From a virus (lineage: Duplodnaviria > Caudoviricetes): DNA of 64,000 nucleotides. The notes below the pieces were generated by a model. The model did not search any database and was not told the origin of the DNA. It saw only the letters and a list, made by a program, of their open reading frames with translations. Made by a program: the position numbers and the translations under genes. The stretch is taken from positions 1-64,000 of the IMG/VR virus record IMGVR_UViG_3300025875_000590. One strand, given 5' to 3'. Shown one piece after another: positions 11,321 to 48,925 of the stretch (the first letter of the stretch is position 1; each line of letters opens with the position of its first letter).

Positions 11321-11599
11321 TCACCGGTCGGCGAGCCCGTCGCCGTCGACGTCGTGGTGCGCGCCGTTCCCGTCCCGGTCGAGGGCGTCGAGGACGACGG
11401 CCCGGTTGCGGCGCAGCCACGCCGCGGCGCCGCCGGCGAGCAGCACGAGCGCCCCGGCGGTCTCGGGGGTGAGGTCGACGCCGAGCAGCCCGGCGATCCA
11501 CACGAGGGCGAGGACGCTGCTGCCGGTGCCGACGCCGGCCACCCACTTCTGCGTGGGGGCCAAGGTGGGCTGGTCAACGGGGTCGGGGGTGTCGCTCAT
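11321..11599 (-). CDS. Putative holin
   Basis: 92 aa, two hydrophobic segments, charged tail, end of tail cluster. Confidence 0.6.
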   Translation of the reverse strand: MSDTPDPVDQPTLAPTQKWVAGVGTGSSVLALVWIAGLLGVDLTPETAGALVLLAGGAAAWLRRNRAVVLDALDRDGNGAHHDVDGDGLADR

Positions 11600-12159
11600 C
11601 GTCCAAGCACTATCTTCGCGGCCTGCGTGTAGATGAGGCTCTCGATGCGCTGCTGGCCGAGCCCGTTGGGGTGGAACTTGTCGGTGTCCCACAGCTCGGG
11701 GCGGTCGCGGGGGAACCACTGCTGGTCGAGGGGGTCCATCCAGCAGTCGAAGTCCAGGCCCCACACGGCCTGAAGAACGGCGTCGCGGGCGGCGATCACG
11801 TTGGACGGGATGGTGTCTGGGCCTGACCACTGAGGACCGATCCACAGGTGCTTGGCGGCGGGGTACCGCTTCTTCGCGGCATGCAGCGTGGCCCAGGCCG
11901 TGGTGCACAGCTCCCGGTTGTCGGCGGCCTGGTCGTTGACCGACCCGAAAAACACCACGAGCTTCGGGTCGGTGGTCTGGGCGGTGAGCAGCTGGCGGGA
12001 GAAGCGGTTGCGGCCGGCCCAGATTCCGGTGGCGATGAAGCCGGAGCCGGGGACGGCTCGGTTCTCCACGGGCATCCCGAGGTGTTCACCGAGCAGGGTC
12101 GGCCACACCTTCCACGGGGCTTGTGCGGTGAAGCTGTCGCCGATGGTGAGGATGGACAA
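11596..12159 (-). CDS. SGNH/GDSL hydrolase
   Basis: GDSF, PGSG, GSVND and DKFHP blocks; TTG start with GAAGGAG RBS. Confidence 0.85.
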   Translation of the reverse strand: MSILTIGDSFTAQAPWKVWPTLLGEHLGMPVENRAVPGSGFIATGIWAGRNRFSRQLLTAQTTDPKLVVFFGSVNDQAADNRELCTTAWATLHAAKKRYPAAKHLWIGPQWSGPDTIPSNVIAARDAVLQAVWGLDFDCWMDPLDQQWFPRDRPELWDTDKFHPNGLGQQRIESLIYTQAAKIVLGR

Positions 12160-12178
12160 AGGGGGGGTGCTCCTTCGG

Positions 12179-14416
12179 TCAGGCGCCGGTGTAGGCGAGG
12201 TGGAACTCGACGTTGTCGAGGTAGTGGGATGCCACAGCCGGGACGACGGCGCCCTGGGTGGTGTCGATGCGGAACCTGCCGTCTGTGAGCAGCGTGCACA
12301 GGGCGCGGATGTTGCCAGCGCCGACAGGCAGCTCAAAAACCTGAGTCTGAGCGGGCCACCAGCCTGCGGGCATCGTGATGGGGAACTGAGTGGCATTGGC
12401 CGCGTAAGCGCCACCGTTGAAGAACCAGCCGACGAGCCGTGCTGTGCCGTGCGCGGTCCTGTAGACCATCGGCTTGTGCCCGGCGGGAATCCCCCATCCG
12501 CCGTTGACGGTGACCGGCGTGAGCGGCGACTGCACGAGAGTCTGAGATGGGAGCAGGAGTCGCGTGGCGCGGATCTCCACCACGTTCTCCTTGCCGCCGG
12601 CATCGGCATCGGCCCACGTGATGTTGATGGCCGCGCCAGCCCCATTGCTCAACGACAGCAGAGACGAGGCCAGAGAAGTCGATCCAGTGAGGCTGGGGGC
12701 GGCGGCGCCTTCCTCCCCTAGGAACTCGATGACCCCCGTGGCCAATGAGCCATTGCTGAGAGTCTGGGCAATCCGAATGCGAGGACCAGTCGCGGCGGTT
12801 TGAATGACGCCGACGATGTTGGCACCGGTGGCTGTGAGCAGACCCGTGGCGGGGTTGATCGAGGTCATGGCGACCCCGGCGGAGTTATAGCCGACCAGCC
12901 CGTTCGTGGAGTCGATCTGGATGCGCTGCCCGGACGCGGCGGTGCGGATCGTGGCGCCGGTGATCGTCTTGCCGTTGATCGCGGCGGCGTTGAGCGCGGC
13001 GGCGTAGATCGAGCCGTCCACGAACAGGTTCTGCGCGTTGATCGACTTGGCGGCGAACACCTCGGTGCCGAACTGCTGCAGCACCCACGCCGACCCCGAC
13101 CAGGTGGACAGCCGCCGGCCGTTGGCGGTGTCGATCCACAGGTCCCCGGCGATGAGGGAGGACCCGGCGGCGGTGGGAGCGGTGGCCTGGGGGAACACGC
13201 GGTTGCGCCCGTTGGCGAGGGTGTAGGAGGCGTCGGCACGGCTCTGTGCGGTGGCGATGGTGGTGTCCCGAACCGACGTCCACGCCCCGGAGGTCCAGCG
13301 GTACAGGCGCAGCCCGTCGTCGGTGTCAACCCACAGGTTGCCCTCGATCTGCCCGGTCGAGACCGGCGCGGTGGCCTGGTAGTAGGTGACGATCTTGGAG
13401 TTCGCGGTGCTCTGCGCGTTCCCGGCGGCGGTGCTGGCGGCGGCGGCAGCCGTCACGGCCTCGGCGATGCGCTGGTCTGCGGCCAGCAGCCACGCCGAGC
13501 CCGACCAGCGGTACATGCGGTTGCCGTCGTCGGTGTCGAACCACAGGTCCCCGACGTCGCCGGCGCCGAGCCCGGTGGGGGCGGTGGCCTGGAAGTACGA
13601 CGTGGTCTTCCCGTCGGCGGTGGCCTGAGCGTCGGCGGCGTCGGCGATCGCCCGGTCGGCGGCGGCCTGAGCGGCTTCGATGCCCAGGTCCCGCACGAGG
13701 ATCCACCGCTCGCCGTCCCAGCGGCTCTGCCGCTCCTGGTTGGCGGTGTCGATCCAGAGGGCCCCGACGTCGACGGCACCGGTGGGCGCGGTGTCCTGCC
13801 GGAACGTGCGCACCTTGCTCGTGGCGAGGCCCTGCGCGACGGTGGCGTCGGCGACCGCCTGGGCGGCGTCCGCGGCGGCGCCTGCGGCGTCGGCGTCGGC
13901 GAAGGCCACGGTGGTGCCGGCGAGCGCGGCAGCTTCGCGGGCGGCGTCCGCGGCGGAGGCGGCGAGGTCGGCGTGCTGCTGCACGTCCCCGCCGGTGGCG
14001 GCGGCCTGCTGCGCGGCGGCGAGCGCGGCGGACGCCTGAGCCGCGGCGTCGTCGGCGGCCTGCTGCGCGGCGGCCACGTCCTCGCGGACAGGGTCTCCGG
14101 CGGCGGCTTCGGTCTCCGCCGCCTCGGCCGCCGCGACAGCAGCAGCAGCGGCGTCGACGGCGGTGGCGGCTCGAGCGGCGGCGGCGTCGGCCAGCTCCTG
14201 CGCCGCAGCCGTGGTGAGTCCAGCGGCGTCCGCGGCGTCCTGCGCGTCCCGAGCGACCTCGGGGGCGAGCGCGATCTCCTGCATGGGGACCTCGACGCCG
14301 GGAGCCACCTTCACCGAGGCCTTGTTCAGCCGGTTGCCGGTGGCGAGGTTGCGCAGCTGCCGCTCAACGTCGGCCATCCACGCCGACATCGCCGCCGGGT
14401 TCGGGAAGTCGCTCAC
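12179..14416 (-). CDS. Tail fibre / receptor-binding protein
   Basis: Ala-rich coiled coil, four QATAP...GDLW.DT...W.G..W repeats, variable C-terminus. Confidence 0.8.
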   Translation of the reverse strand: MSDFPNPAAMSAWMADVERQLRNLATGNRLNKASVKVAPGVEVPMQEIALAPEVARDAQDAADAAGLTTAAAQELADAAAARAATAVDAAAAAVAAAEAAETEAAAGDPVREDVAAAQQAADDAAAQASAALAAAQQAAATGGDVQQHADLAASAADAAREAAALAGTTVAFADADAAGAAADAAQAVADATVAQGLATSKVRTFRQDTAPTGAVDVGALWIDTANQERQSRWDGERWILVRDLGIEAAQAAADRAIADAADAQATADGKTTSYFQATAPTGLGAGDVGDLWFDTDDGNRMYRWSGSAWLLAADQRIAEAVTAAAAASTAAGNAQSTANSKIVTYYQATAPVSTGQIEGNLWVDTDDGLRLYRWTSGAWTSVRDTTIATAQSRADASYTLANGRNRVFPQATAPTAAGSSLIAGDLWIDTANGRRLSTWSGSAWVLQQFGTEVFAAKSINAQNLFVDGSIYAAALNAAAINGKTITGATIRTAASGQRIQIDSTNGLVGYNSAGVAMTSINPATGLLTATGANIVGVIQTAATGPRIRIAQTLSNGSLATGVIEFLGEEGAAAPSLTGSTSLASSLLSLSNGAGAAINITWADADAGGKENVVEIRATRLLLPSQTLVQSPLTPVTVNGGWGIPAGHKPMVYRTAHGTARLVGWFFNGGAYAANATQFPITMPAGWWPAQTQVFELPVGAGNIRALCTLLTDGRFRIDTTQGAVVPAVASHYLDNVEFHLAYTGA

Positions 14417-15552
14417 GGGGTGCCCCCGACGGTGAGCGCCACCTGATCGCGCTTGCCGGCGTCGCCGACGGTGACGTCCTCCCCGAGCACGCGGGTGACG
14501 TGCAGGACCGGGGTCGGCCACTCCTCGAGCGACTCGTCGGTGATCTCCAGGCCGACGTCGTCACCAGGGATCACGCCGGCGTCGAGGTACCGCTCGGGCT
14601 CGACGGTGACCCCGGAGAACACGTACTCCGACGCCTGGCCGGCGCGGAGGGCGACCTTCGCGCGGGCCTCGAGCAGCGGCTCGTCGTCGGTGTCGGAGGC
14701 GGAGATGGTGCCGATCCAGGACGGCCAGCCGGAGTCCAGCTCGAACACGCCGGCGGCTTCGTCCTCCACGGCGACCCACGGCTGGGCCTCCCCCGACCCG
14801 GCGCCGAGGGCGATGACGACGTTGTCGGTGCCCGACCCGTCCTCCTCCAGGTCCCAGGTGAGCAGGCCCCCGTCGGGGTAGGCGAACTCCAGCTGCGTGT
14901 CGGCGTAGCGGCGGCCGAGCCGGTCCCCGTCATCGAGGACCAGGGCGGTGGCGAACCGGCCGTCGACGTCGCGGTAGCAGTCGACGCGCACCTCGAGGGT
15001 GCGGGCCTCCAGCTCGGTGAGGCCGAGGATCAGCTCGAGGATGGGCTTGACCTCCCGGGCGAGCCACTCGCGGTCCTCATCGATGCCGGCGCCGCCGATG
15101 ACGGGCATGACGCGCCCGTTGGGGGTGCCGCCGCGCTGCCGGCCGATGCGCTGCAGCAGGAGCTCGGCGGCGTCGTGGGGGCTGCGGTTGCCGGGGATGA
15201 GGTCATCGAGCAGCCGCTGCCGGTGCAGCCACCCCTCCCAGGTGACGGCGGAGAAGGTCAGGCCGGGGGACCCCGACGACCGCTTGCGGCGGGAGACGGG
15301 CCCGCCCCACCGGCAGGTGGTCCGGCCGTCGGGGTGCTCGTACTCCACCCAGGCGGCGGTGCGCCGGGGCCGGGTCGCCGACCACGGGTTGAGCGCGCGC
15401 ACCTCGGGATCCGACAGCGACAGGTAGGCGTCGAGGGTGCCGACGCCGTTGACCTGCCGGCCGAACTTGACCCCGGTGAGCGGCAGCGTGGCCAGCTCGG
15501 CGCCGGTGAGCATGTCGGTGAGCGTGTAGGTCCAGGGGGACTCCCCGTTCAC
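14413..15552 (-). CDS. Minor tail protein (baseplate hub-like)
   Basis: Position after Dit-like gene; LPLTGVKF...GTL...WGGPV pattern. Confidence 0.7.
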   Translation of the reverse strand: MNGESPWTYTLTDMLTGAELATLPLTGVKFGRQVNGVGTLDAYLSLSDPEVRALNPWSATRPRRTAAWVEYEHPDGRTTCRWGGPVSRRKRSSGSPGLTFSAVTWEGWLHRQRLLDDLIPGNRSPHDAAELLLQRIGRQRGGTPNGRVMPVIGGAGIDEDREWLAREVKPILELILGLTELEARTLEVRVDCYRDVDGRFATALVLDDGDRLGRRYADTQLEFAYPDGGLLTWDLEEDGSGTDNVVIALGAGSGEAQPWVAVEDEAAGVFELDSGWPSWIGTISASDTDDEPLLEARAKVALRAGQASEYVFSGVTVEPERYLDAGVIPGDDVGLEITDESLEEWPTPVLHVTRVLGEDVTVGDAGKRDQVALTVGGTP

Positions 15553-15689
15553 CGCGCCCACCGGGCAGCGGAGATGGCGGCGCGGGTGAGCGCGACCGCG
15601 GTGGCGACGCCGATGCTCACCCCGGCCAGGGACCAGCGGAGCCCGCCGTCGACCGGGGTAAGCAGGTAGTCCAGGGGCCAGCGGGTCAC
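15549..15689 (-). CDS. Small membrane protein (46 aa)
   Basis: One hydrophobic segment, overlaps endolysin stop and next start. Confidence 0.45.
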   Translation of the reverse strand: MTRWPLDYLLTPVDGGLRWSLAGVSIGVATAVALTRAAISAARWAR

Positions 15690-17083
15690 GGGCGGGCCGC
15701 CACGAGCATGCGGTAGTCGTCGGCGTAGCAGCGGCCGAACAGGGTCGTGCGGGGCAGCCACCGGTGCTGGTAGGCGGCCATCGCGTCGGTGGTCTGCTGG
15801 CCCCACACGCCGTCGGCCCAGCTCGAGCGCCAGTCCTTCACGCCGGGCACGAACCCGAGGGCGATGAGCTTCCGCTGGATCCAGAGGACGTAGGCCTTCT
15901 CCCACGCCGCCCAGCCGCCGTGGGACTGCGAGGGGCCGCGCACGTCGCCGAAGTAGTGGGAGGCGGGCATGCGCAGCCGCGACGGCCAGCTCGGCGCTGC
16001 GGGCACCGGGGGGATGACCGGCGCGGCCGGAGCCGGGGCGGGGGCGGCCGGCTTCGGTGCGGGAGCAGGGACCGGGGCCGCACCCGCGGCGACCCGGAGG
16101 ACCTGGCCGACGGTGAGGGTGTCCGAGGACAGCCCGTTCCAGCTCTTGATGAGGGCGACCGTCGTCCCGTAGCGGCGGGCCAGGGCGTACAGGGTCTCCC
16201 CCGCGGCGACGGTGTGCGTGCCGGCGGGAGCCGGCGTGGGCGCGGGGGCCTTCCCGTAGTCGCGGTGGATGGACGCGGGGTTGGCGAGGTAGGCGTACAC
16301 CTCCCGCCAGAACCGGTCCATGTCCAGGGCGGAAGCGTCGACCTTGCGGCCCTTCGGGAGGGCGTAGGAGGCGTGCCGAGTGGTGAACCGGTCGTCCTGC
16401 TTGATCTCCAGCAGGATGGAGGCGACCAGCCGCGGGTAGGCGTCCCGCTCCTCCTCGGTCCAGCTCTTGCCGTCGGACTCGGCCTCGATGCCCACCAGCA
16501 GCCCGTTGCCGTCGGTGCAGCCGTTCCAGTTCCCAGCTCCGGCGTGCCAGCTGGTCAGGTTGGAGATCAGGTAGACGGTGCCTGAGCGGCCGAGCCCGAA
16601 CGCCGAGAGGCTGTTGGCGAGGTCGGAGCGCCCGTCGCGGACGATGCGCAGGGTCGGGTAGTCCCCCGGCGTCGACCAGGCGGTGCCGGTGTGGTGCACC
16701 AGCGCCCCCCACACGGCGCGCATGGGCCCGCCGGCGGTGCGGGCCGACCACGCCTCCACGACGGGGTAGCCGGTGCGGGCGGCGATGCGCCGCATCTGCT
16801 CCCGGGTCAGGCCACCCTTCTGGATGAGGGTGCGCCGGATCGGGCGGGGCAGCTTCGCGGTGCGGGTGCCGGCCATCGCGCGGGCAAGCCGGTCGGCGCC
16901 CTCGTAGGGGTCGGCGCCGATGGTGCGCACGGCCTGCAGCGCCCGCTGGCGGAGGTGGCGGGGCTGGGAGAACGGCAGGGCGGGCGCGGTGTTCGCGGCG
17001 ATCCAGGCGTCGTCCACGTACTCGGACGGGTCGACGTCGGCGGCGGACCAGCCGCGGGCGATCTCGGGAGAGGCGAGGGACAC
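15686..17083 (-). CDS. Endolysin: amidase_2 + LysM + PG-binding
   Basis: VHHTG...SWHAG...GIEAE; LysM HTVAAGETLYALARRYGTTV; ADGVWGQQT. Confidence 0.9.
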   Translation of the reverse strand: MSLASPEIARGWSAADVDPSEYVDDAWIAANTAPALPFSQPRHLRQRALQAVRTIGADPYEGADRLARAMAGTRTAKLPRPIRRTLIQKGGLTREQMRRIAARTGYPVVEAWSARTAGGPMRAVWGALVHHTGTAWSTPGDYPTLRIVRDGRSDLANSLSAFGLGRSGTVYLISNLTSWHAGAGNWNGCTDGNGLLVGIEAESDGKSWTEEERDAYPRLVASILLEIKQDDRFTTRHASYALPKGRKVDASALDMDRFWREVYAYLANPASIHRDYGKAPAPTPAPAGTHTVAAGETLYALARRYGTTVALIKSWNGLSSDTLTVGQVLRVAAGAAPVPAPAPKPAAPAPAPAAPVIPPVPAAPSWPSRLRMPASHYFGDVRGPSQSHGGWAAWEKAYVLWIQRKLIALGFVPGVKDWRSSWADGVWGQQTTDAMAAYQHRWLPRTTLFGRCYADDYRMLVAARP

Positions 17084-17206: not shown

Positions 17207-18193
17207 TCAGCTGGCGGCGATGTAGCTGGCCGTCCCCTCGGCGAACCCGTTCTTCAGGAACTTGCGGGCGGTCCAGCGGGACTGGATCAGCAGGGCCCCG
17301 TTGCCGTCGATGAACAACCCGAAGCCCCCGTACTCGACCTGGTTGGTGTTCAGGACGGCGACCGAGGACGGCCGGACGCGGGCCGGCAGACCTCCGCCGA
17401 CCACGAACGCCTGCCAGGCCGCGAAGTTGACGTCGGCACCGGTGCGGGTGAGCGCGAAGTCGACGGTGACCGACCGGCCGACCTGCTGCGCGTAGACGCT
17501 TCCTCCCCAGCCTGCGCTGATGCCGGCGTTCACCACGGGAGACACGATGGTGACCCACCGGGCACCGTCCCACCGCTGCAGGCCGAGCGTGGGGTGGTCG
17601 CGGTACCGGTAGCCGTCGTTGCCGGGGGTGGTGTCGCCGTCCTCGATGGGCAGGATCCCGCCGCGAGGCACGGTGAACTGGCGCAGACCGGTGAGGGACA
17701 CGGTCCCGTTGGGGTCGACGGAGCCGCGTCGCAGGACCGCCGTCGCGCCGGTGGTGGGCATGGCCGGCTCGACGGCGGCGGCGAGCGTGCCGGCACCGTC
17801 GCCGAGCAGTACCTCCAGGTCCCAGGTGTCGTCGGCGTCGCCGCCGGTGACCTGGTCGTGGACGTGGGCGATGACGATGAACCGCCGGTAGGTGGTGGCC
17901 GAGGCCGCCGGGACGGCCCGGAACTCCGGGGCGTCCCAGGTGACGGTGTAGGGCCCCTGGGTGCCGTTGACACGGCCGTCGCAGACGGCCTGCCCGGCGG
18001 CGATGTTGATCCCGCCGTTGGTCGCGGTGACCACGGCGGGACCGCCGGGCCCGGGGACGATGCCGGAGCGGGGCCGCAGACCGCTGGTGCCGGGCGTCCA
18101 GAGGGCACCCTGGTTGAGCCGGTGGTCCTCGGCAGGCAGCTCATAGGGGTCGGCCTCCAGGCCCTGCAGGTAGGAGACAGCGCGCTTGGTCAT
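17207..18193 (-). CDS. Minor tail protein
   Basis: ATG 18193; position in tail cluster; beta-rich with variable C-terminus. Confidence 0.7.
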   Translation of the reverse strand: MTKRAVSYLQGLEADPYELPAEDHRLNQGALWTPGTSGLRPRSGIVPGPGGPAVVTATNGGINIAAGQAVCDGRVNGTQGPYTVTWDAPEFRAVPAASATTYRRFIVIAHVHDQVTGGDADDTWDLEVLLGDGAGTLAAAVEPAMPTTGATAVLRRGSVDPNGTVSLTGLRQFTVPRGGILPIEDGDTTPGNDGYRYRDHPTLGLQRWDGARWVTIVSPVVNAGISAGWGGSVYAQQVGRSVTVDFALTRTGADVNFAAWQAFVVGGGLPARVRPSSVAVLNTNQVEYGGFGLFIDGNGALLIQSRWTARKFLKNGFAEGTASYIAAS

Positions 18194-23070: not shown

Positions 23071-23652
23071 TCACCCGCCCGTGGGGGCGGCCATCTGCGC
23101 GGCGAGCGCGAGCCACCCGTCCTCCTCGCCCTCGATCGGGCTGTCGTCGTCGGGGTCGACGTCGGCCGGCGGCAGCGGAGGGGAGGCCAGCTCGGCGTCC
23201 AGGCGGGCCACGTCCTCCTTCTTGGCGTGCTGGGTGAGCCGGAGGTACACCCACGCGCACAGCTCGTCCAGCGGCCAGTCCAGAGGGTCGCCGAGGCCGC
23301 GGTCGCGGGCGACGGCGATGAAGGTGTCCCAGCCGTCGACCATGGTGGCCACGAGCATGGTGGCCTGCCACCACGGGCGGCCGGCGGCCTGGGCGAGCAG
23401 GCCCTGCCCGATGCGGTGCAGCAGCGCCGGGTCGAGGTCCTCGTCGGGGTCCAGGGCGGTGTCCCACAGCTCTTCGGCGACGTCGTCGGGGAGGACCTCG
23501 AGCAGCAGGTCGGCGGGCTCGTCGGAGAGGATGGCCAGCACCCACACCCGGGCGGGGTGCTCGGCCACCTCGAACAGCCGGCCGTCGATGCGGAAGGCAA
23601 GCGGGTCCAGCCGCCGGTCGCGCCAGGCGTCCAGACGCGACCGGGCGCTCAC
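23071..23652 (-). CDS. Tail assembly chaperone, downstream part
   Basis: Between chaperone and tape measure, in the -1 frame of the upstream gene. Confidence 0.6.
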   Translation of the reverse strand: MSARSRLDAWRDRRLDPLAFRIDGRLFEVAEHPARVWVLAILSDEPADLLLEVLPDDVAEELWDTALDPDEDLDPALLHRIGQGLLAQAAGRPWWQATMLVATMVDGWDTFIAVARDRGLGDPLDWPLDELCAWVYLRLTQHAKKEDVARLDAELASPPLPPADVDPDDDSPIEGEEDGWLALAAQMAAPTGG

Positions 23653-24008: not shown

Positions 24009-24087
24009 GAGGGGCTCCTGGTGCAGGGGGCGAGCAGACGACAGCACGGTAACCGTCTGCGGTCGGCTGGTGACGCCAGGCACGCGG

Positions 24088-24615: not shown

Positions 24616-24619
24616 GGGG

Positions 24620-24886: not shown

Positions 24887-24900
24887 GACAGCTCCCTACC

Positions 24901-34568: not shown

Positions 34569-34575
34569 GAGGACA

Positions 34576-41439: not shown

Positions 41440-42218
41440 CAGCCGGCCGCGAAGGGCACGTAGCCCTCGAGGGAGGTGATGGGGGTGGCCAGCGCGGTGA
41501 GGTCGCCGTCCGGGGGCAGGGAGACCTGCCAGTCCCCGGCCCAGGTGAGGGTGATGGGGGCCGCGACCCGGCCACCGTTCGGGGCCTCGATGACGACCGC
41601 GACGGCGACGGTGCTCATGCCGGTGGACAGGTAGGTGAAGCCGACGATCTCCCCGGCCTGCCCGCTGCCGGTGATGGCGACGGGGTTGGTCGCGGCGAGC
41701 TCGACCAGCGCGTCGCGCCCGGGTCCGGGGGCGGTGAGCTCGCCGACGGCGCGCTCGAGGACCTGCGGGTCGGTGAGGGCGGCGATGAACCCGGCGGCGG
41801 CGAACAGCGCCCCGGTAGGGGTGCGGGCGTAGCAGCGGGCCACGCCCCCGTCGTTGAGGACGGGACCGACCTGCGCGGCGAACGGGGCGAGCATCCGCCC
41901 GACCGGCAGCCACTGCGCGGCCGGGGGCTGCGCCCGGGTGGGCAGCGACTGGTCCTCGGCGGGCAGGTCCGAGGGGCAGGCGGCGAGCTCGCGGCCACCG
42001 ACGGGGCGGGGAGCGACGCCGCTGGGGACCGCGCTGGGGGCGGCACTGCTCGGCGCGGCGGCCGGGGGCGCCTGCTCGGGCGTGCGGTCGTGGAGCAGGA
42101 CGAAGGCGAGGGCGGCGGCGACGGCAACCACCAGCAGCCCGGACGCCCACGTCCAGCCGGGGTGGGCGAACCGGCGCCGCGGAGCGGCGGGGGGCGCGGG
42201 CGTCCGGGTGCCGAGCAT
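41439..42218 (-). CDS. Bitopic conjugation protein (VirB8-like position)
   Basis: One TM, ARCYARTPTGALFAA. Confidence 0.55.
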   Translation of the reverse strand: MLGTRTPAPPAAPRRRFAHPGWTWASGLLVVAVAAALAFVLLHDRTPEQAPPAAAPSSAAPSAVPSGVAPRPVGGRELAACPSDLPAEDQSLPTRAQPPAAQWLPVGRMLAPFAAQVGPVLNDGGVARCYARTPTGALFAAAGFIAALTDPQVLERAVGELTAPGPGRDALVELAATNPVAITGSGQAGEIVGFTYLSTGMSTVAVAVVIEAPNGGRVAAPITLTWAGDWQVSLPPDGDLTALATPITSLEGYVPFAAG

Positions 42219-42526
42219 CAGACGAGCACCGCCCCGATGATCGCGGAGGCGGAGCCGGCGATGACCGCGGCGGCGAGGACCTTCACGACGCCGCCGGTGA
42301 CCTCGACGTGGCCCTGCCGGTTGTGCTCGATCGCCATCTTCCCGGCGACGACGAGCAGGCCGGCGACGCAGAGCCCGAACACGACCCAGGCGGCCCACCC
42401 GAGCACGGTGAGGAAGCCGTCGGAGCCGGGGGGCGCCTCGCCCTGGCCGGGGTCGGGGATGGCGGCCAGCACGTCGAGGGCGGCGAGGTTGGCGGAGGCG
42501 AGCTGGGTGGTGAGCAGGTGCGACAC
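42218..42526 (-). CDS. TrbC/VirB2-like pilin
   Basis: PGQGEAPPGSD..LTVLGWAAW plus two TMs; first gene of operon. Confidence 0.65.
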   Translation of the reverse strand: MSHLLTTQLASANLAALDVLAAIPDPGQGEAPPGSDGFLTVLGWAAWVVFGLCVAGLLVVAGKMAIEHNRQGHVEVTGGVVKVLAAAVIAGSASAIIGAVLV

Positions 42527-42645: not shown

Positions 42646-43737
42646 TCAGCCGAGCCCGGTCAGGTCAACGCCGCGGGCGCGGAGGAACGGCACCGGGTCG
42701 ATGAAGCCGCTGGTCACCGAGCCGCCCTGCAGGATCTCGAAGTGCAGGTGGGGGCCGGTCGAGTCGCCGTAGGTGCCGACGCGGGTGATCTGCTGCCCGA
42801 CCTGCACCCGGTCCCCGACGCGCACGAGAACGTTCGCCGGCGTGGCGTGCGCGTAGCGGGTGACGACCCCACCGCCGTGGTCGATGGCCACCAGCGTGCC
42901 GTAGCCCCCGCAGGGGCGGGCGTTGGTGAGGCAGGCCATGACGACGATGCCGTCCGCGGCGGCGACAACGGGCGTGCCGAGGGGAGCACCGATGTCCGCG
43001 CCGTTGTGCATCCGCCCCCAGCGCATCCCGAACCCGGACGTGAAGCGGCCGACCGCGGGCTTCGTCCAGCCCTCGGCGGTGGGAGCCCCACCGGCCAGCG
43101 GAGGCGTCTCCTGGCACGCGGCCCCACCGGTGGCCGGGGAGGGCACGAGGCCCCCGCCGAGCGCGGCAACGACGGCGGTCGCGGCGGGCCAGTACTTCTC
43201 GTAGTGCCACGGGTCGGCGTTGCGCTGCACGGCGTGCGCCGCGGCGGTCGGGGTCATCGTCTGCCAGCCCTGCACGTCGAGCAGCCCGCGCTGCCCACCG
43301 CGCCCACCGGTGAAGAACATGACCGCCGACCCGTAGGCGTCCAGCCGCACCTCCCGCGGCCCCCACGGGTCCCGCTGCTGGAACCACCCCAGAGAGTCCG
43401 GCCCGGCCAGGTCGCCGTGGTCGACGGCGGTGAGAGCGGACTCCCCCATCGAGGTCATGACCCCGATCGTCTGCCCGAACACCGGGACGCCGCTGTCCGC
43501 GCCGGCCTTCATGATCGCGGCGGCGCCGACCAGCTGCGCACCGGAGTACCCAGCGACCGACGCCGCCGGCGCTGGAGCACCCGGTGCGCCGGCGACGGGG
43601 GAGGCGGTGACCGCGCCCTCCCCGCAGACGGTGGTGGTGGCGACCTCCCGGGACCCGGCGATGACCACCCCGACGCCGAGCAGCACGACGAGCAGCGGCA
43701 GCGCGATCGCCGGCAGCAGCCGCAGGAGGATCTTCAC
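42646..43737 (-). CDS. M23 peptidase, conjugation cell-wall hydrolase
   Basis: HNGADIGA, STGPHLHFEI; central GWFQQR..WG lysozyme-like segment; N-terminal TM. Confidence 0.85.
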   Translation of the reverse strand: MKILLRLLPAIALPLLVVLLGVGVVIAGSREVATTTVCGEGAVTASPVAGAPGAPAPAASVAGYSGAQLVGAAAIMKAGADSGVPVFGQTIGVMTSMGESALTAVDHGDLAGPDSLGWFQQRDPWGPREVRLDAYGSAVMFFTGGRGGQRGLLDVQGWQTMTPTAAAHAVQRNADPWHYEKYWPAATAVVAALGGGLVPSPATGGAACQETPPLAGGAPTAEGWTKPAVGRFTSGFGMRWGRMHNGADIGAPLGTPVVAAADGIVVMACLTNARPCGGYGTLVAIDHGGGVVTRYAHATPANVLVRVGDRVQVGQQITRVGTYGDSTGPHLHFEILQGGSVTSGFIDPVPFLRARGVDLTGLG

Positions 43738-44246
43738 TGCACCGGCCGGATCCGCTCGACCCGCCACGGCGAAATCCCGTCCTCCCGGACCATGAGCACC
43801 AGGTAGGGCCCGGCGTCGGTGTCGACGGTGGCCTCGGCGAGCCACGCCGACGGGCTGGTCACCGTGGCGTCGGCGAAGTTGGTGACCGCCACCTCGGCCG
43901 GGTCGGTGCCGTAGTAGGCGGCCTGCCCCGCCGGGGTGAGCAGCCCGGCGAGCTGCTCGTACCAGACGTCGGCCGGGACGTCGGCGGCGTAGGCGCCCAT
44001 CGCCTGCAGCGCGAGCAGGCGGGTGGTCTCGGCGTCGGCCTCGGTCCAGGTGGGCACGGCGGCGCTGCTGGCCGGCAGCTCGTCCAGCGCGGGCGAGGGC
44101 TCGGCCGCGGTCGAGGACACCGCCGAGCTCGGCGGGGAGCTGCTGGCCGTGGGCTTGGAGCTGATGCTCAGGGAGCAGCCGGTGAGGGCGAGCACGGCCC
44201 CGACGGTGACAGCGGACGACAGGCGGCGCATGATGATCCGATCCAC
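43734..44246 (-). CDS. Lipoprotein of conjugation cluster
   Basis: Lipobox LTGC; alternative start ATG 44231. Confidence 0.65.
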   Translation of the reverse strand: MDRIIMRRLSSAVTVGAVLALTGCSLSISSKPTASSSPPSSAVSSTAAEPSPALDELPASSAAVPTWTEADAETTRLLALQAMGAYAADVPADVWYEQLAGLLTPAGQAAYYGTDPAEVAVTNFADATVTSPSAWLAEATVDTDAGPYLVLMVREDGISPWRVERIRPVQ

Positions 44247-44370: not shown

Positions 44371-44820
44371 GTGGCGGAGCAGGACGAGGCCGACGGCCAC
44401 GGCGAGGGGCTGGCGGGCAAGCTCGACCGCCTGTTCGCCACGGTGCTCAACCCGGCCACCGGCCGCCCGTACAGCCACGAGGACGTCGCCACCGCCCTCG
44501 CCGGTGCCGGTGGCCCGACGATCTCGGCGACCTACCTGTGGCAGCTGCGCCGCGGGCAGCGCACCAACCCGCGGATGAGCCACCTCGAGGCCCTCGCCCG
44601 CCACTTCGGGGTCGACCCCGCCTACTTCTTCCCCGGGGAGCTCGCCGCCGAGGCCGCCGAGCGGATGGCCACCGCCGCCGCGCTGCGCGACACCCGGGCG
44701 CTGGGGATCGCCCGGCAGGCCGCCGCCCTCGGGCACGGCAGCCTCGACGTCGTGGCCCTCGTGGTCGCCCACCTGCACAACCTCGAGGGCCACAACCCCG
44801 TCCGCGTCGCCTCGGCCTAG
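44371..44820 (+). CDS. XRE-family HTH regulator (EspR-like)
   Basis: LAGKLDRLFATV...RPYSHEDVA...ISATYLWQLRRGQRTNP...LEALARHFGVDPAYFF. Confidence 0.8.
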   Translation: MAEQDEADGHGEGLAGKLDRLFATVLNPATGRPYSHEDVATALAGAGGPTISATYLWQLRRGQRTNPRMSHLEALARHFGVDPAYFFPGELAAEAAERMATAAALRDTRALGIARQAAALGHGSLDVVALVVAHLHNLEGHNPVRVASA

Positions 44821-45497
44821 CGGCCCCGCTCCCGGTCCGCCCCGCGCCCGCGCCCGCGGGCCTTCGGTGCCCGGCCCCTTGCCGGGGAGCCCTGCTCGCG
44901 CACCGCCTCGGCCGCAGGCTTGGCCTGCGACCGGCCGGCCAGCACCGCCGCCTCGGTGCCCTCCTTGTCCACGCCGAGCCCGCGCACCCGGTCCTCCGGG
45001 TCGGCGATGAGCACCTCGACCGGCGGCACACCCCCCCGAGCAGGTGCAGCGTCGGCGGCCCGCACGTCGGCCACCGGCACCTCGCTGTAGGCCTCGTGCC
45101 CGGTCTGCACCGCCACCGTCTCCGGCAGATCAGGAATCGACCGCCAGTCCGCGCCGAACCGCTGCTCGAGGACCCGCTCGGCCTGCCGGCGGTCGTCGGC
45201 GGCCAGCACCGCGATCGCCGTCGGAGCCTCGCGGGCATCCCGCCGCCGAGCGGCTTCGGTCATGGGCAGCCCCAGGTCGCCGGTCTCTCGGTCTCGCGGG
45301 CGGACCGCTTCCTTCACCGCGGTGGTCGCCATGCTGCGCTGCCGGTCCGCCGCCGCCTGAGCACCCGCCGAGGACGCCCGAGCGCGAGCCTCATCCTCCC
45401 GCCTGCGGGCCATGTTCTCCAGCACCTGCCCGGCGCCGGTCAGCACGACCCGCTTGGCCCCGTCGAGGACCTCCTCCACACCATCACCCTCGGACAT
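44817..45497 (-). CDS. Hypothetical protein downstream of relaxase
   Basis: GC3-rich ORF following relaxase. Confidence 0.6.
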   Translation of the reverse strand: MSEGDGVEEVLDGAKRVVLTGAGQVLENMARRREDEARARASSAGAQAAADRQRSMATTAVKEAVRPRDRETGDLGLPMTEAARRRDAREAPTAIAVLAADDRRQAERVLEQRFGADWRSIPDLPETVAVQTGHEAYSEVPVADVRAADAAPARGGVPPVEVLIADPEDRVRGLGVDKEGTEAAVLAGRSQAKPAAEAVREQGSPARGRAPKARGRGRGADRERGR

Positions 45498-45509: not shown

Positions 45510-47045
45510 TCATCGCTCCACCCCGCGGTCGCGGGACGTCGTCGTGCGCGCTCGAGCACGCTCCAGATCGGCAGGCAGCACCGCCCCCGGTGCCGGGCGT
45601 GAACTGCTGGGCGCCGAAGTCACGCCAGACGGCGCGGGCGTGAACTGCGGCGTGGGGAGGGTGGCGGCGATGGTGACGAGCTCCCCGCGGGCCATCCGCG
45701 CGATCTCCTCCGCCCGCCGCGCCTCCCCCACCGCCCCGTGCCAGTCGTGCAACGCCCGCGTCGTGTTGGACAGCTGCCGCAGCAGCACCGCCTGCGCCAC
45801 CGTCCCCTGCCCCCCGTGCGCGATCGAGGCGAGCAGCAGCGCCGCCCCCCGCGCCGACGGGCCCCGCCGAGCCCCCTTCGCCTCGTGCGCCCGGATCTGC
45901 GCCGACCGGGCCAGGGAATCCGCGGCGTGCGCGAGCGGCCCCGGCACGTCGCCCTCCACGGCCACCGACCAGGCGGCGAACGCGCCGGCGGTCTCCCCCG
46001 CCACCCGAGCCCACGTCGCCCGGTCGGTGACCGGCACCGACCGCAGCCACGCCTGCAGCTGCCCGATCTCGACCGCCGCCGCCTCCCACAGCTCCGGCCC
46101 GGGGGTGACCAGCTCCGGCCCGGAGCGCACCGGTGCCCGGCCGCGTTTCGCCGCGGTCCACTCCTCGACGGCCTCCCCCACCGCCTCGACCGACCGGTCC
46201 CACCCGGCGGCCTCCCGCAGCCGAGGCAGCGTGAGGTCCTTCGCCAGGTGCCCGCCGCCGTAGAAGATGCCGTCCCCGCCCGGTGCCGGCCGGGCGACGG
46301 AGTGCCCGCCGACGACGTCGTCCCGGTCCGCGGCGAACCGGGCGTCGACGCGCAGCCCCGCCCGGCGGAGCCGGCGCACGAACTCCGCCTCGCTCGAGGC
46401 CGCCGCTGCAGCCGCCCGCACGGTGCGCGCCAGCCGCACGGTCTCCGGCTCCCGCCCGGCCGCCGCCGCCCGCTCGAGCACCGGCCGGGACACCCCGCGG
46501 TCCCCGCGGCCAGCGCCTCGGGCCTCCAGGCGCACCAGCCCGTACTTCGCCTCCAGCTCCCGGGCGAGGGCCTGAGCGCGCGGCCGGTCCCGCCACACGT
46601 TGGCCTTGGTGCCGTCCTCCCGCACGAGGGAGGTGACGAAGTGGATGTGGTCGTTGCCGCCCTTGCTCGGGCCGTGGTGCACGGCGACCCACCGGCAGGG
46701 GGCCTTCCCGTCGGCGCCGGAGAACCCCATGCCGTCGGCGATGTCCTGCGCGATCGCCGCCCACTTCTCATCCGGCAGCCGGCCCTCGTCGGCGGCCAGC
46801 GCCCAGGAGGCGTGCCACACGTGCCCGTCGGGGACGTCGACGTGGAACGCCCGCCGCGGCCCGCCGAGGTCCCGCCCGATCGCCAGCGCTTGCTCGTGGG
46901 ACAGGACGGCGGTGTCGTACCAGGCCATGATCGCCGGATCGCCGGCGACCAGGTGCGGGTCGACGTGCTGGTTGTCCCGCCCGGGCCCGACCAGGTAGGC
47001 CATGAGCCCACCGAGCCGGTTCCCGCGGGTGATGTTCGGCATCAC
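45510..47045 (-). CDS. MOBP-type relaxase
   Basis: MPNITRG..LGGLMAYLVGPG (catalytic Tyr), VWHASWAL, VAVHHG...NDHIHFV. Confidence 0.85.
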   Translation of the reverse strand: MMPNITRGNRLGGLMAYLVGPGRDNQHVDPHLVAGDPAIMAWYDTAVLSHEQALAIGRDLGGPRRAFHVDVPDGHVWHASWALAADEGRLPDEKWAAIAQDIADGMGFSGADGKAPCRWVAVHHGPSKGGNDHIHFVTSLVREDGTKANVWRDRPRAQALARELEAKYGLVRLEARGAGRGDRGVSRPVLERAAAAGREPETVRLARTVRAAAAAASSEAEFVRRLRRAGLRVDARFAADRDDVVGGHSVARPAPGGDGIFYGGGHLAKDLTLPRLREAAGWDRSVEAVGEAVEEWTAAKRGRAPVRSGPELVTPGPELWEAAAVEIGQLQAWLRSVPVTDRATWARVAGETAGAFAAWSVAVEGDVPGPLAHAADSLARSAQIRAHEAKGARRGPSARGAALLLASIAHGGQGTVAQAVLLRQLSNTTRALHDWHGAVGEARRAEEIARMARGELVTIAATLPTPQFTPAPSGVTSAPSSSRPAPGAVLPADLERARARTTTSRDRGVER

Positions 47046-47281
47046 AGCCCAGCCACCCCCAGGTCCTCGACCACCTGCTGCAACTCGGGGGTGACCCCGA
47101 CGCTGCCGTACTCGCCGTCCGCGTCGTCGGCCAGGCTGCGGGCGAGCTCGACCACGGCGCGGAGCGCGGCCAGGGGCACGGTCACCGTGCGGTCCCCGTC
47201 CTCGGCCGGGCACAGGTGCACCTCCTCGCCGCGCCTGTACCACCGCCCGCACGGCTGGTGATACAGCTGGTTGGCCGGCAT
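47042..47281 (-). CDS. Small hypothetical protein
   Basis: Overlaps relaxase start and upstream stop. Confidence 0.55.
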   Translation of the reverse strand: MPANQLYHQPCGRWYRRGEEVHLCPAEDGDRTVTVPLAALRAVVELARSLADDADGEYGSVGVTPELQQVVEDLGVAGL

Positions 47282-47403
47282 CACCAGACCACCTCGCAGT
47301 ACGCGCAGTGGTGCCCGCCGTCGTGGCCGGGGTCCTCGCCGCACCAGTGCAGCACCCGGCCGTCGTCCTCCAGCTCGTCACCGCAGTCCGGCGGGAAGCT
47401 CAT
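47281..47403 (-). CDS. Small Cys/His protein (40 aa)
   Basis: CGDE...HWCGEDPGHDGGHHCAYC. Confidence 0.55.
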   Translation of the reverse strand: MSFPPDCGDELEDDGRVLHWCGEDPGHDGGHHCAYCEVVW

Positions 47404-47591
47404 CGCCGGGCCGCCCGCCGAGCGCGACGCCGCGGCGCCGGGATCTCCAGCCCAGCCACAACGGCGCAATCGGGGATAACAGCCCCGTTGGAGTCGAAGC
47501 CGCCGTTGGTGCCACACAGCGGCATCGCGGAGCCACCGTTGGTGCCACGCTCGTCCCACGAGCAGCCCACGGCCGAGCACACCTCGGTCAC
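47400..47591 (-). CDS. Small Cys protein
   Basis: GTG 47591, overlaps both sides. Confidence 0.4.
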   Translation of the reverse strand: MTEVCSAVGCSWDERGTNGGSAMPLCGTNGGFDSNGAVIPDCAVVAGLEIPAPRRRARRAARR

Positions 47592-48019
47592 CCCTCCACC
47601 CCCAGGATCCGAGCCGTCGCGCACGGCCACGCCACCAGATGCACGTCCGGGTGCAGGTACGGCCCGTCCTCGCCATCCCACTCGTCGGGCCCCGAGCACT
47701 CCCGGCACACCGCCGCCGCCACGCCGCCACCGAGCAGCAGCCGCACCAAGCCGGGCATGGCGAACGGCCGGTGCAGCGCCCCGAGCTCCATGACCAGATC
47801 CCGCGCCGGCGGCACCTCGGCGCGCTCCTCGAGCACGTCGATCGGCAGGGTCACCTGCCAGTCCGACTGCGACCCGTCCGCCGACCGGACCAGGATCGTC
47901 GGAGCAGCCGCGTACCCGACGACCACGCCCTCCGCGAGCGGCATCGTCATCCCCTTCGGGTCGAACGCCGGCCACACCCGCACCCGCCGCCCCAACCACT
48001 CCCTGGCCGCCTCGCTCAC
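47588..48019 (-). CDS. Phage-like hypothetical protein
   Basis: LHRP...CRECS...WPCATARILG. Confidence 0.6.
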   Translation of the reverse strand: MSEAAREWLGRRVRVWPAFDPKGMTMPLAEGVVVGYAAAPTILVRSADGSQSDWQVTLPIDVLEERAEVPPARDLVMELGALHRPFAMPGLVRLLLGGGVAAAVCRECSGPDEWDGEDGPYLHPDVHLVAWPCATARILGVEG

Positions 48020-48261
48020 GCCGGGACCCCCAGCGTCAGCAGCAGCACGTCGTAGTAGGCCCCGACGTCGACCCGTTCCGCCCGCAGCACCGCATCCCCC
48101 TCCGGCAGCTTCTCCCGCAGCATCTCCAGCAGCCCCTCGACCGCGAACCGGTCCTGCTCGTAGCCCGGCGCCAGATGCGCCGACACGAACACCCCCGGCC
48201 GCCCGCCGAGCACCGCCAGCCCCGCCGCCTGCTGCGCCGCCTCCAGCAGCTCCACCCTCAC
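48016..48261 (-). CDS. Hypothetical protein
   Basis: Overlaps mobC stop and next start. Confidence 0.55.
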   Translation of the reverse strand: MRVELLEAAQQAAGLAVLGGRPGVFVSAHLAPGYEQDRFAVEGLLEMLREKLPEGDAVLRAERVDVGAYYDVLLLTLGVPA

Positions 48262-48674
48262 GACGCCGGACCCGACGACACGACGTCGATCGCCACATCG
48301 ATCCGGCCACCCGGCCCCGCCAGCCGCCGCAGCTCCAGCAGGTCCTCCCGCACCACCTCGACCGGGAACCCGTCGCCGACGTTCACCCGCCGAGCCGCCT
48401 GGTTCAAGTTCGTCGCCATCCCCGACAGGTCCCGCCGCAGAGCGAACAGCTGCACCAGCAGCTCCCGCCGCACCGCCGGCGTCTCCCCACCCGAGGACAA
48501 CGCGAGCTCCACCAGGGCCTTCTGCAGCGTGATCCCACCGGCCTCCGCGGCGTGCCGCTCCAGCACCTCGAGCTCGTCGTCGGACAGGTCCACCGGGATG
48601 CGGTGCGGCCGACCACCCGGCACCCGCTCGCGCCGCATGCGACCGAGCACCCGGCCCGGCGAGAGATCAGCCAC
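48258..48674 (-). CDS. mobC: MobC relaxosome accessory protein
   Basis: RHH-like N-terminus; LSGMATNLNQAARRVN motif. Confidence 0.8.
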   Translation of the reverse strand: MADLSPGRVLGRMRRERVPGGRPHRIPVDLSDDELEVLERHAAEAGGITLQKALVELALSSGGETPAVRRELLVQLFALRRDLSGMATNLNQAARRVNVGDGFPVEVVREDLLELRRLAGPGGRIDVAIDVVSSGPAS

Positions 48675-48792
48675 GGTGCACCGCCACCCGGGGCACGAGG
48701 CACCCGCACTCGGATCCGTCGAGCCGGCCACGACAGCCCCGCCTGTCCACAACGTGCTCGGACAGCGGATGCGGACAGCACACCAGCTCCAC
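48667..48792 (-). CDS. Small Cys/His protein upstream of mobC (41 aa)
   Basis: MELVCCPHPLSEH...GC...CGC; variant start-associated motif (GCTGAGGAGC) at 48801-48810. Confidence 0.55.
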   Translation of the reverse strand: MELVCCPHPLSEHVVDRRGCRGRLDGSECGCLVPRVAVHRG

Positions 48793-48874
48793 GACGACCA
48801 GCTCCTCAGCCCAGCGCAGCGCCCCCAACGGGCACCCCACCCCGCCACGATCTCACGGCGGCCGGGGCACGCGC

Positions 48875-48925
48875 CAGCGGTAACTGCGCGTTAGCGCCTA
48901 GCTTGCTCCGCACCACAAGCCCCAG
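48875..48925 (+). other. Candidate oriT
   Basis: TAAC-N5-GTTA repeat then CCTAGCTTG/C, upstream of mobC. Confidence 0.5.

Follow-up and report, generated by a model that had tools for sequence, protein, structure and literature searches.

The stretch of DNA considered here, positions 1 to 64,000 of the IMG/VR virus record IMGVR_UViG_3300025875_000590 (the window), raises the question of how the genes of a tailed phage, a partition system and a conjugation apparatus come to lie on one molecule, and whether such an element could travel both in virions and by conjugation. The window covers the first 64 kb of one viral record of 87,200 bp, called G000 in the following, with a CheckV completeness of 96%. 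A preliminary description of the window had proposed, in hedged form, a candidate conjugative phage-plasmid, and this proposal is supported by the intact-looking modules, the ParAB pair, the lack of an integrase and an architecture that recurs in other contigs. We are highly confident that G000 is a tailed-phage genome that holds partition genes together with an intact-looking, conserved conjugation cassette (Table 1). The best explanation for this combination, which we consider somewhat probable, is a phage that lives as a plasmid prophage and carries a self-contained cassette for the conjugation of single-stranded DNA (ssDNA). On whether G000 truly moves by both routes, our judgment is evenly balanced.

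The GC content is ~75% along the whole contig, a value at which ordinary lists of open reading frames (ORFs) are useless, and the genes were therefore called by codon-position GC. This gives ~137 genes, of which only two are on the plus strand and which have a GC content at third codon positions (GC3) of 0.90–1.00; GC, GC3 and strand bias are even throughout G000, and no tRNA genes were found on it. No terminal repeats, direct or inverted, were found at the contig ends, and IMG/VR classes the metagenomic record as "linear". The two ends of G000 (genes g002 and g135) are adjacent in its relative G001, and the two ends of G001 (TerS and g125) are adjacent in G000, which shows that the maps are circular or circularly permuted and that both are near-complete. 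G000 is thus a near-complete, circularly mapping genome of ~87 kb, from an uncultured siphovirus-like phage of a high-GC actinobacterium. A gene for a DUF732 protein, of a secreted or lipoprotein-like actinobacterial family, is found at 3008–3427 among small genes preceded by the start-associated motif discussed below, and may point to lysogenic conversion and to an actinobacterial host, such as one with mycolates.

Matches to profile hidden Markov models (HMMs) and to PHROG families bear out the virion and lysis module that the preliminary description had placed at 11.3–31.8 kb. The module in the window comprises head, tail and lysis genes, but the terminase, portal and MuF/protease genes sit at 68–83 kb of the contig. 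Taken over the whole contig, the gene set of a siphovirus-like member of the Caudoviricetes is present (terminase, portal, major capsid protein (MCP), tail tube, tape measure and lysis), and no tail sheath family was matched among the tail genes scanned. The distal tail genes (11321–15561) match phrog_5240, phrog_33754/1330 and phrog_1885, their homologs in G001 being 48–63% identical, and the MCP has 1945 homologs, the closest with 91%, 81% and 73% identity. The head-gene array is split by a gap of ~36 kb between MuF and the MCP, which is occupied by the par genes, by the conjugation cassette and by small genes over ~19 kb. The virion, packaging and lysis genes are intact and 43–95% identical across seven contigs.

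Some features of individual virion genes may be recorded here. The gene of the 745-aa tail protein contains four copies of ~200 nt (13079–13769), suggesting repeated domains, and that of the tape measure protein contains 132-nt tandem units at 19658–19982. Many full-length relatives of the MCP align from near the N-terminus, while for the closest cassette-free phages (G002, L009 and L015) the alignment starts only at about residue 169. Genomes of ~52 kb and those of ~87–95 kb thus differ in the N-terminal region, which possibly represents a scaffold or delta-like domain.

The parB-parA genes that the preliminary description had placed after the virion module are confirmed by their Pfam matches. 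The pair lies directly upstream of the MCP gene, gives the phage genome the plasmid partition system expected of a phage-plasmid, and is kept in the related contigs L089, L090, L176 and L178; no parS-like iterons were found near it. The genes g044 and g045, between ParA and the cassette, are kept in L089, L090, L091 and L176. A six-frame search of G000 and G001 gave no tyrosine or serine recombinase (PF00589, PF00239), and a search for an FtsK/TraB-type translocase (PF01580) was negative in G000, G001 and G002, positive controls being included in both cases. Six perfect or near-perfect TGTCCAG-N2-CTAGACA palindromes, all intergenic and to be compared with an expectation of 0.35, are probably the operators of one repressor. 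Together with ParAB and the XRE regulator of the cassette, these palindromes suggest a repressed, plasmid-like prophage state. From the ParA-ParB pair, the missing integrase and the repressor/operator-type sites we infer that the element would persist as a plasmid prophage.

The conjugation cassette, of ~14 kb, follows ParB-ParA. It begins with a DUF4913 protein, the usual companion of the type IV coupling protein (T4CP) in actinobacterial cassettes, and the adjacency of the two genes is also found in Klenkia marina, L184, L089–L091 and L176. The T4CP has two N-terminal transmembrane helices and intact Walker A (GPRGGKTT) and Walker B (LLCLDEA) motifs; among 50,697 phage records it has no tblastn match. 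The VirB4-like ATPase, for which 38 homologs were aligned and an AlphaFold2 (AF2) model was built, also has Walker A and B motifs. The best match of its well-modelled ATPase core in the Protein Data Bank (PDB) is the Thermoanaerobacter VirB4 (4AG5, E 2.7e-10, template modelling score 0.65 on the target), followed by HerA, TrwK and TrwB, the N-terminal 106 residues being poorly modelled. A PDB sequence search with the ATPase and with the SCO6880-family protein returned nothing significant; the latter, with its N-terminal helix, is a predicted conserved membrane partner of the ATPase. The homologs of the channel proteins in Klenkia and L089, at 39–49% identity, carry PF19590 (TrbL_3) and PF26526 (DUF8175), the Klenkia homolog of the 410-aa protein (39% identical) being the one with TrbL_3.

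The operon of the M23 hydrolase is headed by a 170-aa gene that had been missed earlier. Divergent from this mating-pair formation (MPF) operon lies the XRE/helix-turn-helix (HTH) regulator, which is 75% identical to its L089 homolog over 44410–44637 and is the sole plus-strand gene of the block; the statement of the preliminary description that all these genes share one strand therefore does not hold. The relaxase scores weakly against MobB and TraI_MobP of NCBIfam, shows a Tyr motif near its N-terminus and, at residue 133, HIH, and is 54–68% identical to the relaxases of L089, L091, G001, Klenkia and L184, and the MobC region is kept in all relatives examined. Apart from the strand, the content of the cassette agrees with what had been described: the VirD4, SCO6880-like, M23, relaxase and MobC genes are recovered in their places by HMM matches, a candidate VirB4 by its best fold match together with a weak sequence-family score, and putative VirB6-like and pilin-like genes by transmembrane topology and, for the former, by homologs with TrbL_3. 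The topologies of the T4CP, the 410-aa and the 102-aa proteins fit the roles proposed for them. With the Walker and relaxase motifs whole, the conjugation gene set looks intact.

Upstream of mobC there is a candidate origin of transfer (oriT). It consists of an invariant GAGCAAGCTA block followed by a hairpin, and an invariant TCGCTGCGCTGGGC block ~90 nt downstream. Both blocks are common to G000, L091, Klenkia and L184, with a spacing of 85–98 nt in each, and the arms of the hairpin co-vary (GCGC/GCGC in G000, GCAC/GTGC in Klenkia and GGGG/CCC in L091). Such conservation of non-coding DNA at ~40% protein divergence, together with the compensatory changes, is what would be expected of an oriT with a relaxosome site. 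The predicted DNA fold upstream of mobC is no more stable than that of shuffled sequences (z = 0.5).

No close DNA relative of G000 was found in phage or plasmid collections. A megablast search with the 30–50 kb region against phages and plasmids gave only short patches in ParA, T4CP and the ATPase, and single-protein scans of viral contigs with the T4CP and the SCO6880 protein, a method that reaches close relatives only, gave nothing. The MCP matches seven actinobacterial plasmids at 34–45% identity; one of them, Streptomyces pS1D4-14.2, has the portal, a 1035-aa protein and the MCP contiguous, as well as ParA and ParB, and no annotated type IV secretion system (T4SS). The MCP further matches 75 viral contigs, the best of which is G001, a 94.6-kb uncultivated viral genome (UViG) with a CheckV completeness of 91%. 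G001 has 55 of the 137 proteins in common with G000, at 40–80% identity and in collinear order, and carries MobC, relaxase, T4CP, VirB4-like, SCO6880, channel and M23 proteins between MuF and the MCP. Relatives beyond G001 were reached through the closest VirB4-like and MCP homologs, in samples differing from that of G000. Three of them (L089, 38 kb, and L090, 27 kb, both from JGI, and L091, 21.5 kb, from Logan) show the gene order of G000, all co-oriented; L176 (ENA and Logan) has the same order, with 91% identity in the MCP and 93% in the T4CP; and L096, from the sample that also gave G001, has the same layout. Thus the search for syntenic relatives carrying both modules, which the preliminary description had advised, yielded six other contigs (L176, L089, L090, L091, G001 and L096) from at least four other samples. 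In the 96.7-kb contig L178 (MCP 81% identical), the ParAB-MCP region is at the contig end.

The relatives without the cassette are also informative. Portal or MuF adjoins the MCP in 59 of 80 metagenomic MCP relatives, among which conjugation genes occur only on contigs of the G001 sample. G002, a complete 51.8-kb phage (IMG/VR UViG, 127-bp direct terminal repeat, CheckV 100%), has portal, MuF and MCP contiguous, and no T4CP, ParA or start-associated motif. In a sister clade (L179/L186; MCP 68% identical, on no fewer than 28 contigs, the longest of 90.5 kb) the head array is already split: a ParB-like gene and the MCP are preceded upstream by small genes over at least 20 kb, among them ArdA, WhiB and homologs of the DUF1353 gene of G000 and of its opposite-strand neighbour g086. 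No T4SS is present in the 20 kb upstream of the MCP in this clade, which indicates that a large cargo region already separated MuF from the MCP when the cassette came into the lineage.

The comparisons also bear on the age of the fusion. No direct repeat longer than 16 nt flanks the cassette, the shorter matches being the start-associated motif; this and the lack of a PF00589 or PF00239 recombinase agree with the earlier observation that no att-like duplication or transposase marks the edges of the block. The same junctions occur in seven independent assemblies, which excludes a chimera and, together with the co-divergence in the clade, a recent ICE insertion, and every ORF is intact in all clade members examined. 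Neither target duplications, nor a chimeric assembly, nor decay of one module, the findings that the preliminary description had named as speaking against the fusion, were encountered. Within the clade, the identities of G000 to L089/L091 are comparable for both modules (MCP 72–74%, VirB4-like 71%, T4CP 65–67%, relaxase 66–68%). The same cassette is found in Klenkia marina (FMUH01000009.1) and in contig L184, where there are no neighbouring virion genes and the MPF operon is convergent with MobC-relaxase. In G001 the genes between the HTH regulator and DUF4913, both included and M23 among them, have been turned round together (G001 47.4–60.0 kb versus 34.6–44.8 kb of the window), which gives its cassette the orientation seen in Klenkia and L184.

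The virion proteins of G001 are sister to those of G000 (major tail protein 68% identical, compared with 54% for G002; adaptor 61%, compared with 42% for G002), but its T4CP and VirB4-like ATPase are 63–64% identical to those of Klenkia and only 55–56% to those of G000. These cassette relationships rest on identity matrices and not on a quick T4CP tree, which interleaves bacterial and phage sequences and places G001 on a long branch. We conclude from the sequences that in the clade of G000 the cassette is inherited vertically and has been inverted into the direction of the phage genes, and that the difference between this clade and G001 goes back either to an independent capture or to an exchange with a bacterial cassette. 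The association of the phage lineage with the cassette is, we conclude, recurrent or long-lived and not accidental. The earlier view of an old rather than a fresh fusion therefore stands with regard to the junctions in seven contigs and the co-divergence in the clade. The history of the cassette does not amount to one clean domestication, given the inverted and more bacterial-like cassette of G001.

The best explanation, a plasmid-prophage phage with its own conjugation cassette, can be put in terms of the following steps. In a lysogen, the XRE regulator would control the divergent MPF operon, and MobC and the relaxase would nick at the oriT-like site near 48.8–48.9 kb. The VirD4-type T4CP would pass the strand with its bound relaxase to a channel that draws its power from the VirB4-fold ATPase and is built from the SCO6880, VirB6/TrbL-like, DUF8175-like and small two-helix membrane proteins, with the M23 hydrolase opening the wall, and the whole phage genome would enter a neighbouring cell without a phage receptor. 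On induction, TerS/TerL, the portal, MuF/protease, the MCP and the tail genes would package the same DNA, and the endolysin would release the virions. The observed basis of this explanation is the gene content, the motifs, their conservation, the synteny over seven contigs and the co-divergence in the clade. Tentatively, and with rather less than even confidence, we extend it to a dual-route phage lineage, whose genomes would leave in capsids or as relaxase-led ssDNA through their own T4SS, reaching hosts that lack the receptor, and whose cassette would be exchangeable, having been repeatedly swapped with actinobacterial conjugative plasmids or integrative and conjugative elements (ICEs).

A number of points weigh against this explanation. 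The plasmid state and the activity of either transfer route are predictions from the genes, and the host is a presumed high-GC actinobacterium, candidates being Geodermatophilaceae such as Klenkia and other actinobacteria with a GC content of ~74%. ParAB is absent from L091, and the canonical pair was not found in G001. No Pfam or PHROG family match to a Rep, primase, helicase or polymerase was obtained in scans that covered mainly the genes of ~125 aa or more, so that an initiator may have escaped recognition; what came up on G000 was only RecT, HNH, endonuclease VII, Dam and the C5 methyltransferase. The NCBIfam matches of the VirB4-like ATPase, to CD1110 and Mbov_0397, are local and far below the cut-off, and the protein has 554 aa compared with the ~800 aa typical of VirB4; the channel proteins encoded at 40207–42526 have no Pfam match of their own. 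The Nei-Gojobori ω values of the conjugation genes (~0.45–0.65), which are no higher than those of the virion genes (~0.37–0.75), speak for the explanation, but they are comparative only, since a GC3 of ~0.95 compresses dS and inflates the absolute values; absolute dN/dS was rejected as evidence for the same reason. Finally, the closeness of the T4CP and ATPase of G001 to those of Klenkia means that the cassette may be a mobile, exchangeable passenger and not a fixed organ of the phage.

This last thought leads to an alternative that we have considered, in which a functional phage bears a selfish or transient passenger cassette that lands repeatedly in a permissive cargo region, rides in the virions and rarely or never conjugates the phage genome. 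The inverted, Klenkia-like cassette of G001, borne by a phage whose virion genes are sister to those of G000, would fit this picture, as would the sister clade that has the same cargo region without a T4SS next to it and the absence of the start-associated motif from the cassette. However, genes for replication or integration are missing from the cassette itself, and whatever is transferred from its oriT must therefore take the entire phage genome along; its divergence keeps step with that of the MCP through ~30% at the protein level in the clade, with its ORFs and motifs intact, and there it has become co-oriented with the phage genes. We regard this alternative as unlikely. Slightly less likely still is the converse, a conjugative plasmid with a domesticated or defective phage module that forms no infectious particles or is released only in the manner of a gene transfer agent (GTA). 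One could point to the replication genes typical of large lytic or temperate phages, which were not recognised, to the ~36-kb split in the head-gene array and to the lack of a terminal repeat at the contig ends. Against this, the full virion, packaging and lysis set is intact in all seven contigs at the identities given above and its genes are as constrained as in the family of the complete 51.8-kb phage G002, CheckV rates the record as a 96% complete virus, and the split-head layout is common to the abundant sister clade.

The T4SS-like genes might also have been exapted for the exclusion of rivals, effector delivery, or DNA release or uptake. The SCO6880, DUF4913, DUF8175-like and small two-helix components have no known function, and elsewhere among bacteria T4SSs have been put to other uses (PMC3548315). 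Yet MobC, a motif-bearing relaxase, the T4CP and a bacterial-type oriT-like site are all kept, and protein secretion needs none of these, which makes the exaptation improbable. An artefact, that is, a chimeric assembly or an excised piece of chromosome with an ICE next to a prophage, could be suspected from a metagenomic record that is classed as linear and has no end repeats, but it is effectively refuted by the identical junctions in JGI, ENA and Logan contigs from different samples, by the absence of an integrase, tRNA or host-like flanks, by the circular permutation between G000 and G001, and by the uniform GC content, GC3 and strand bias.

The Streptomyces element pZL12/phiZL12 is reportedly both a conjugative plasmid and a plaque-forming phage. 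The major tra family of Streptomyces is an FtsK-like translocase of double-stranded DNA that uses no relaxase. As described (Zhong et al. 2010, cited in PMC3583192, PMC4487206 and PMC7157519), pZL12 is, like G000, an actinobacterial element of ~90 kb with ParAB, and its transfer is assigned to a Streptomyces-type major tra gene together with two genes next to it (PMC3583192). Unlike pZL12, G000 is without an FtsK/SpoIIIE-domain gene and has a relaxase, a T4CP and a VirB4-like ATPase; a close sequence relation between the two was not seen, although pZL12 itself was not directly compared. The phage-plasmids P1, N15, SSU5 and the groups defined by Pfeifer et al. (2021, PMC7969092) resemble G000 in having a tailed-phage gene set and partition genes, no integrase and a presumed extrachromosomal prophage, but G000 differs in the whole mobilization (MOB), T4CP and MPF cassette kept in its clade, and no replication initiator was identified on it. 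In the reviews and surveys consulted, phage-plasmids and conjugative plasmids are treated as separate mobility classes (PMC12282955) and T4SS domains in phage-plasmids have been reported only sporadically (bioRxiv 10.1101/2025.11.07.687105); where P1-like elements had acquired mob or oriT functions, their phage genes were lost (PMC10879196).

The actinobacterial T4SS cassettes, as in Klenkia marina, have the gene set of G000 and its order from M23 to DUF4913, with MobC and relaxase, at 39–67% identity and with oriT-like blocks; Microbacterium, Cellulomonas, Nocardiopsis and Georgenia have many such entries, annotated as "ATP/GTP-binding protein" or "TraM recognition domain". In the bacteria the surroundings of these cassettes are those of a plasmid or an ICE, virion genes are lacking over 10 kb and MPF is convergent with MOB, whereas in the clade of G000 the cassette is flanked by head genes of the phage and has been turned into their direction. 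The Escherichia coli cointegrate p1002-1 (bioRxiv 10.1101/2025.03.14.643293) and the Streptococcus phage-ICE tandems (PMC13651849) likewise join phage and conjugation modules on one molecule. In these, two parent elements that can still be recognised lie next to each other by fusion or accretion, whereas in G000 the cassette is nested in the structural array of one phage backbone, lacks an integrase and a second replicon, and has been passed down in a clade that has diverged. G002 and the family of ~50–60-kb actinophages that share phrog_776/777/779/783/792 have portal, MuF, MCP, connector and tail genes homologous to and collinear with those of G000 at 36–60% identity, but in G002 portal, MuF and MCP are contiguous, while G000 has ~36 kb inserted between MuF and the MCP. 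Within the limited literature searched, we found no description of a phage clade with a relaxase-T4CP-VirB4 cassette nested in its structural genes.

Mobile elements are commonly classed by their mode of travel, in capsids or by conjugation. The two routes are subject to opposite trade-offs, namely host killing with big bursts versus gentle one-by-one transfer, a receptor-limited versus a contact-limited host range, and a capsid size limit versus none (PMC12282955). A conserved clade that keeps both machineries on one replicon would let these trade-offs be tested in a single element. It would provide phages with a way past receptor-based resistance, and it would account for recombination between phage genes and conjugation cassettes. 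If the tentative dual-route reading with its exchangeable cassette is true, phages would moreover act as shuttles for conjugation systems and blur the mobility classes of mobile elements. In addition, the clade offers a compact, conserved actinobacterial T4SS cassette and a candidate oriT, useful for the study of the poorly characterised SCO6880, DUF4913 and DUF8175 components.

Table 1. Features of G000, with positions in the window (or in kb of the contig where stated), strand and basis of assignment
Feature	Position	Strand	Basis or remark
RecT	7184–8377		
HNH	9368–9811		
Small conserved gene	11321–11599	−	distal tail group
Tail-fibre-like protein	11596–12159	−	distal tail group
Large repeat-containing tail protein, 745 aa	12179–14416	−	distal tail group
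Minor tail protein	14413–15561	−	distal tail group
Endolysin	15686–17083	−	phrog_880 and nine further endolysin PHROGs; G001 homolog 77% identical
Virion structural protein	17207–18193	−	in group with phrog_3398, phrog_5577/33 matches
Distal tail protein Dit	18201–19145	−	in group with phrog_3398, phrog_5577/33 matches
Tape measure protein, 1274 aa	19142–22966	−	many tape-measure PHROGs
Neck and tail genes	23071–28308	−	phrog_5, phrog_783, phrog_792, phrog_810; collinear with G001, G002, L176
Two genes at usual tail assembly chaperone position	in 23071–28308	−	position
Small head-tail joining genes	within 23071–28308	−	PHROG
Tail completion/Neck1	24088–24615	−	PHROG
Head-tail adaptor	25464–26219	−	PHROG
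Major tail protein	26222–26965	−	PHROG
Conserved MCP partner, downstream	29132–29971	−	phrog_779, E 3e-45
MCP, 580 aa	30049–31791	−	phrog_777, E 1.6e-158
ParB with centromere-binding C-terminal domain	32045–32533	−	PF18064, E 2e-11
ParA ATPase	32533–33336	−	PF13614, E 4e-39; PF01656
Three small genes, function unassigned	33425–34568	−	no Pfam match; between ParA and cassette
DUF4913 protein	34624–35103	−	PF16259, E 1e-34
T4CP, VirD4/TraG type	35088–36860	−	PF12696, E 3e-28; PF02534, E 3e-14; above cut-off
VirB4-like conjugation ATPase, 554 aa	37045–38709	−	weak NCBIfam matches and fold match
SCO6880-family protein, N-terminal transmembrane helix	38706–40187	−	NF042935, E 1.4e-128
Polytopic VirB6/TrbL-like protein, 410 aa, at least 4 transmembrane helices	40207–41439	−	topology and homologs
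DUF8175-like protein	41439–42218	−	homologs
Small pilin/VirB3-like protein, 102 aa, 2 transmembrane helices	42218–42526	−	topology; role guessed
M23 peptidoglycan hydrolase	42646–43737	−	PF01551, E 2e-27
170-aa gene heading M23 operon	43734–44246	−	47% identical to 174-aa gene of L089
XRE/HTH regulator, start approximate	~44374–44820	+	HTH_31, HTH_3, both below cut-off
Conserved gene downstream of relaxase	44817–45479	−	
MobA/VirD2-type relaxase, MOBP/Q-type	45510–47045	−	PF03432, E 5e-10, above cut-off
Small genes	47042–48261	−	
MobC/NikA-like relaxosome accessory protein	48258–48638	−	PF05713, E 3.5e-6; PF21983
Candidate oriT	48809–48908	−	two conserved non-coding blocks and hairpin
Invariant TCGCTGCGCTGGGC block	48809–48821	−	~90 nt downstream of GAGCAAGCTA block
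Invariant GAGCAAGCTA block	48899–48908	−	followed by co-varying hairpin
C5 methyltransferase	55075–56178		
Endonuclease VII	58383–59012		
DUF1353 gene	59396–59950		neighbour of 422-aa plus-strand gene
422-aa protein	60111–61379	+	phrog_16701 "peptidase"; only plus-strand gene besides XRE regulator
Dam methyltransferase	62408–62932		
TGTCCAG-N2-CTAGACA palindromes	3764, 49341, 49978, 53892, 54826, 57269		small-gene region by oriT side, one at 3.8 kb
Start-associated motif sites	2.5–11.2 kb, 34.6 kb, 49.8–57.2 kb, 64.1, 65.8, 86.6 kb		gene strand
MuF/protease fusion, 976 aa	68.0–70.9 kb of contig		outside window
Portal	71.2–72.8 kb of contig		outside window
TerL	76.5–78.1 kb of contig		outside window
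TerS	82.5–83.1 kb of contig		outside window

The backbone of G000 also bears a start-associated motif, CCAGCTGAGGAGCT(G), in which 5-nt palindromic arms (CAGCT/AGCTG) enclose a GAGG Shine-Dalgarno core. It was recovered by k-mer counts in intergenic DNA, a generic repeat finder having given only codon-bias noise. There are 14 copies on the gene strand, each 4–9 nt before an ATG or GTG, compared with 0–4 hits at up to 2 mismatches in shuffled sequence; the copy at 34575–34588 precedes the last of the three small genes between ParA and the cassette, and no copy lies within the cassette (34.6–48.6 kb). The motif occurs 8–10 times in G001 and is not found in G002 or L186. From this distribution it is a backbone trait of the G000/G001 sub-lineage, without a copy in the cassette. 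Its palindromic form would allow it to fold into a hairpin or to be bound by a dimeric protein. We take it to resemble the start-associated sequences of cluster K mycobacteriophages. The motif and its listed positions in the preliminary description are real, except that the variant at 48.8 kb was rejected as a true copy: it overlaps the TCGCTGCGCTGGGC block, which bacterial cassettes without the motif also carry, and the resemblance is therefore coincidental.

The ~19 kb from the candidate oriT to MuF (49–67.9 kb) contains methyltransferases, endonuclease VII and many small genes, and the equivalent region of the sister clade carries ArdA. Such a content would suit the leading region of a conjugative element as well as the early region of a phage. 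The 422-aa gene in this region and its DUF1353 neighbour are kept in G001 (57% identical) and L186 (45%), always on opposite strands.

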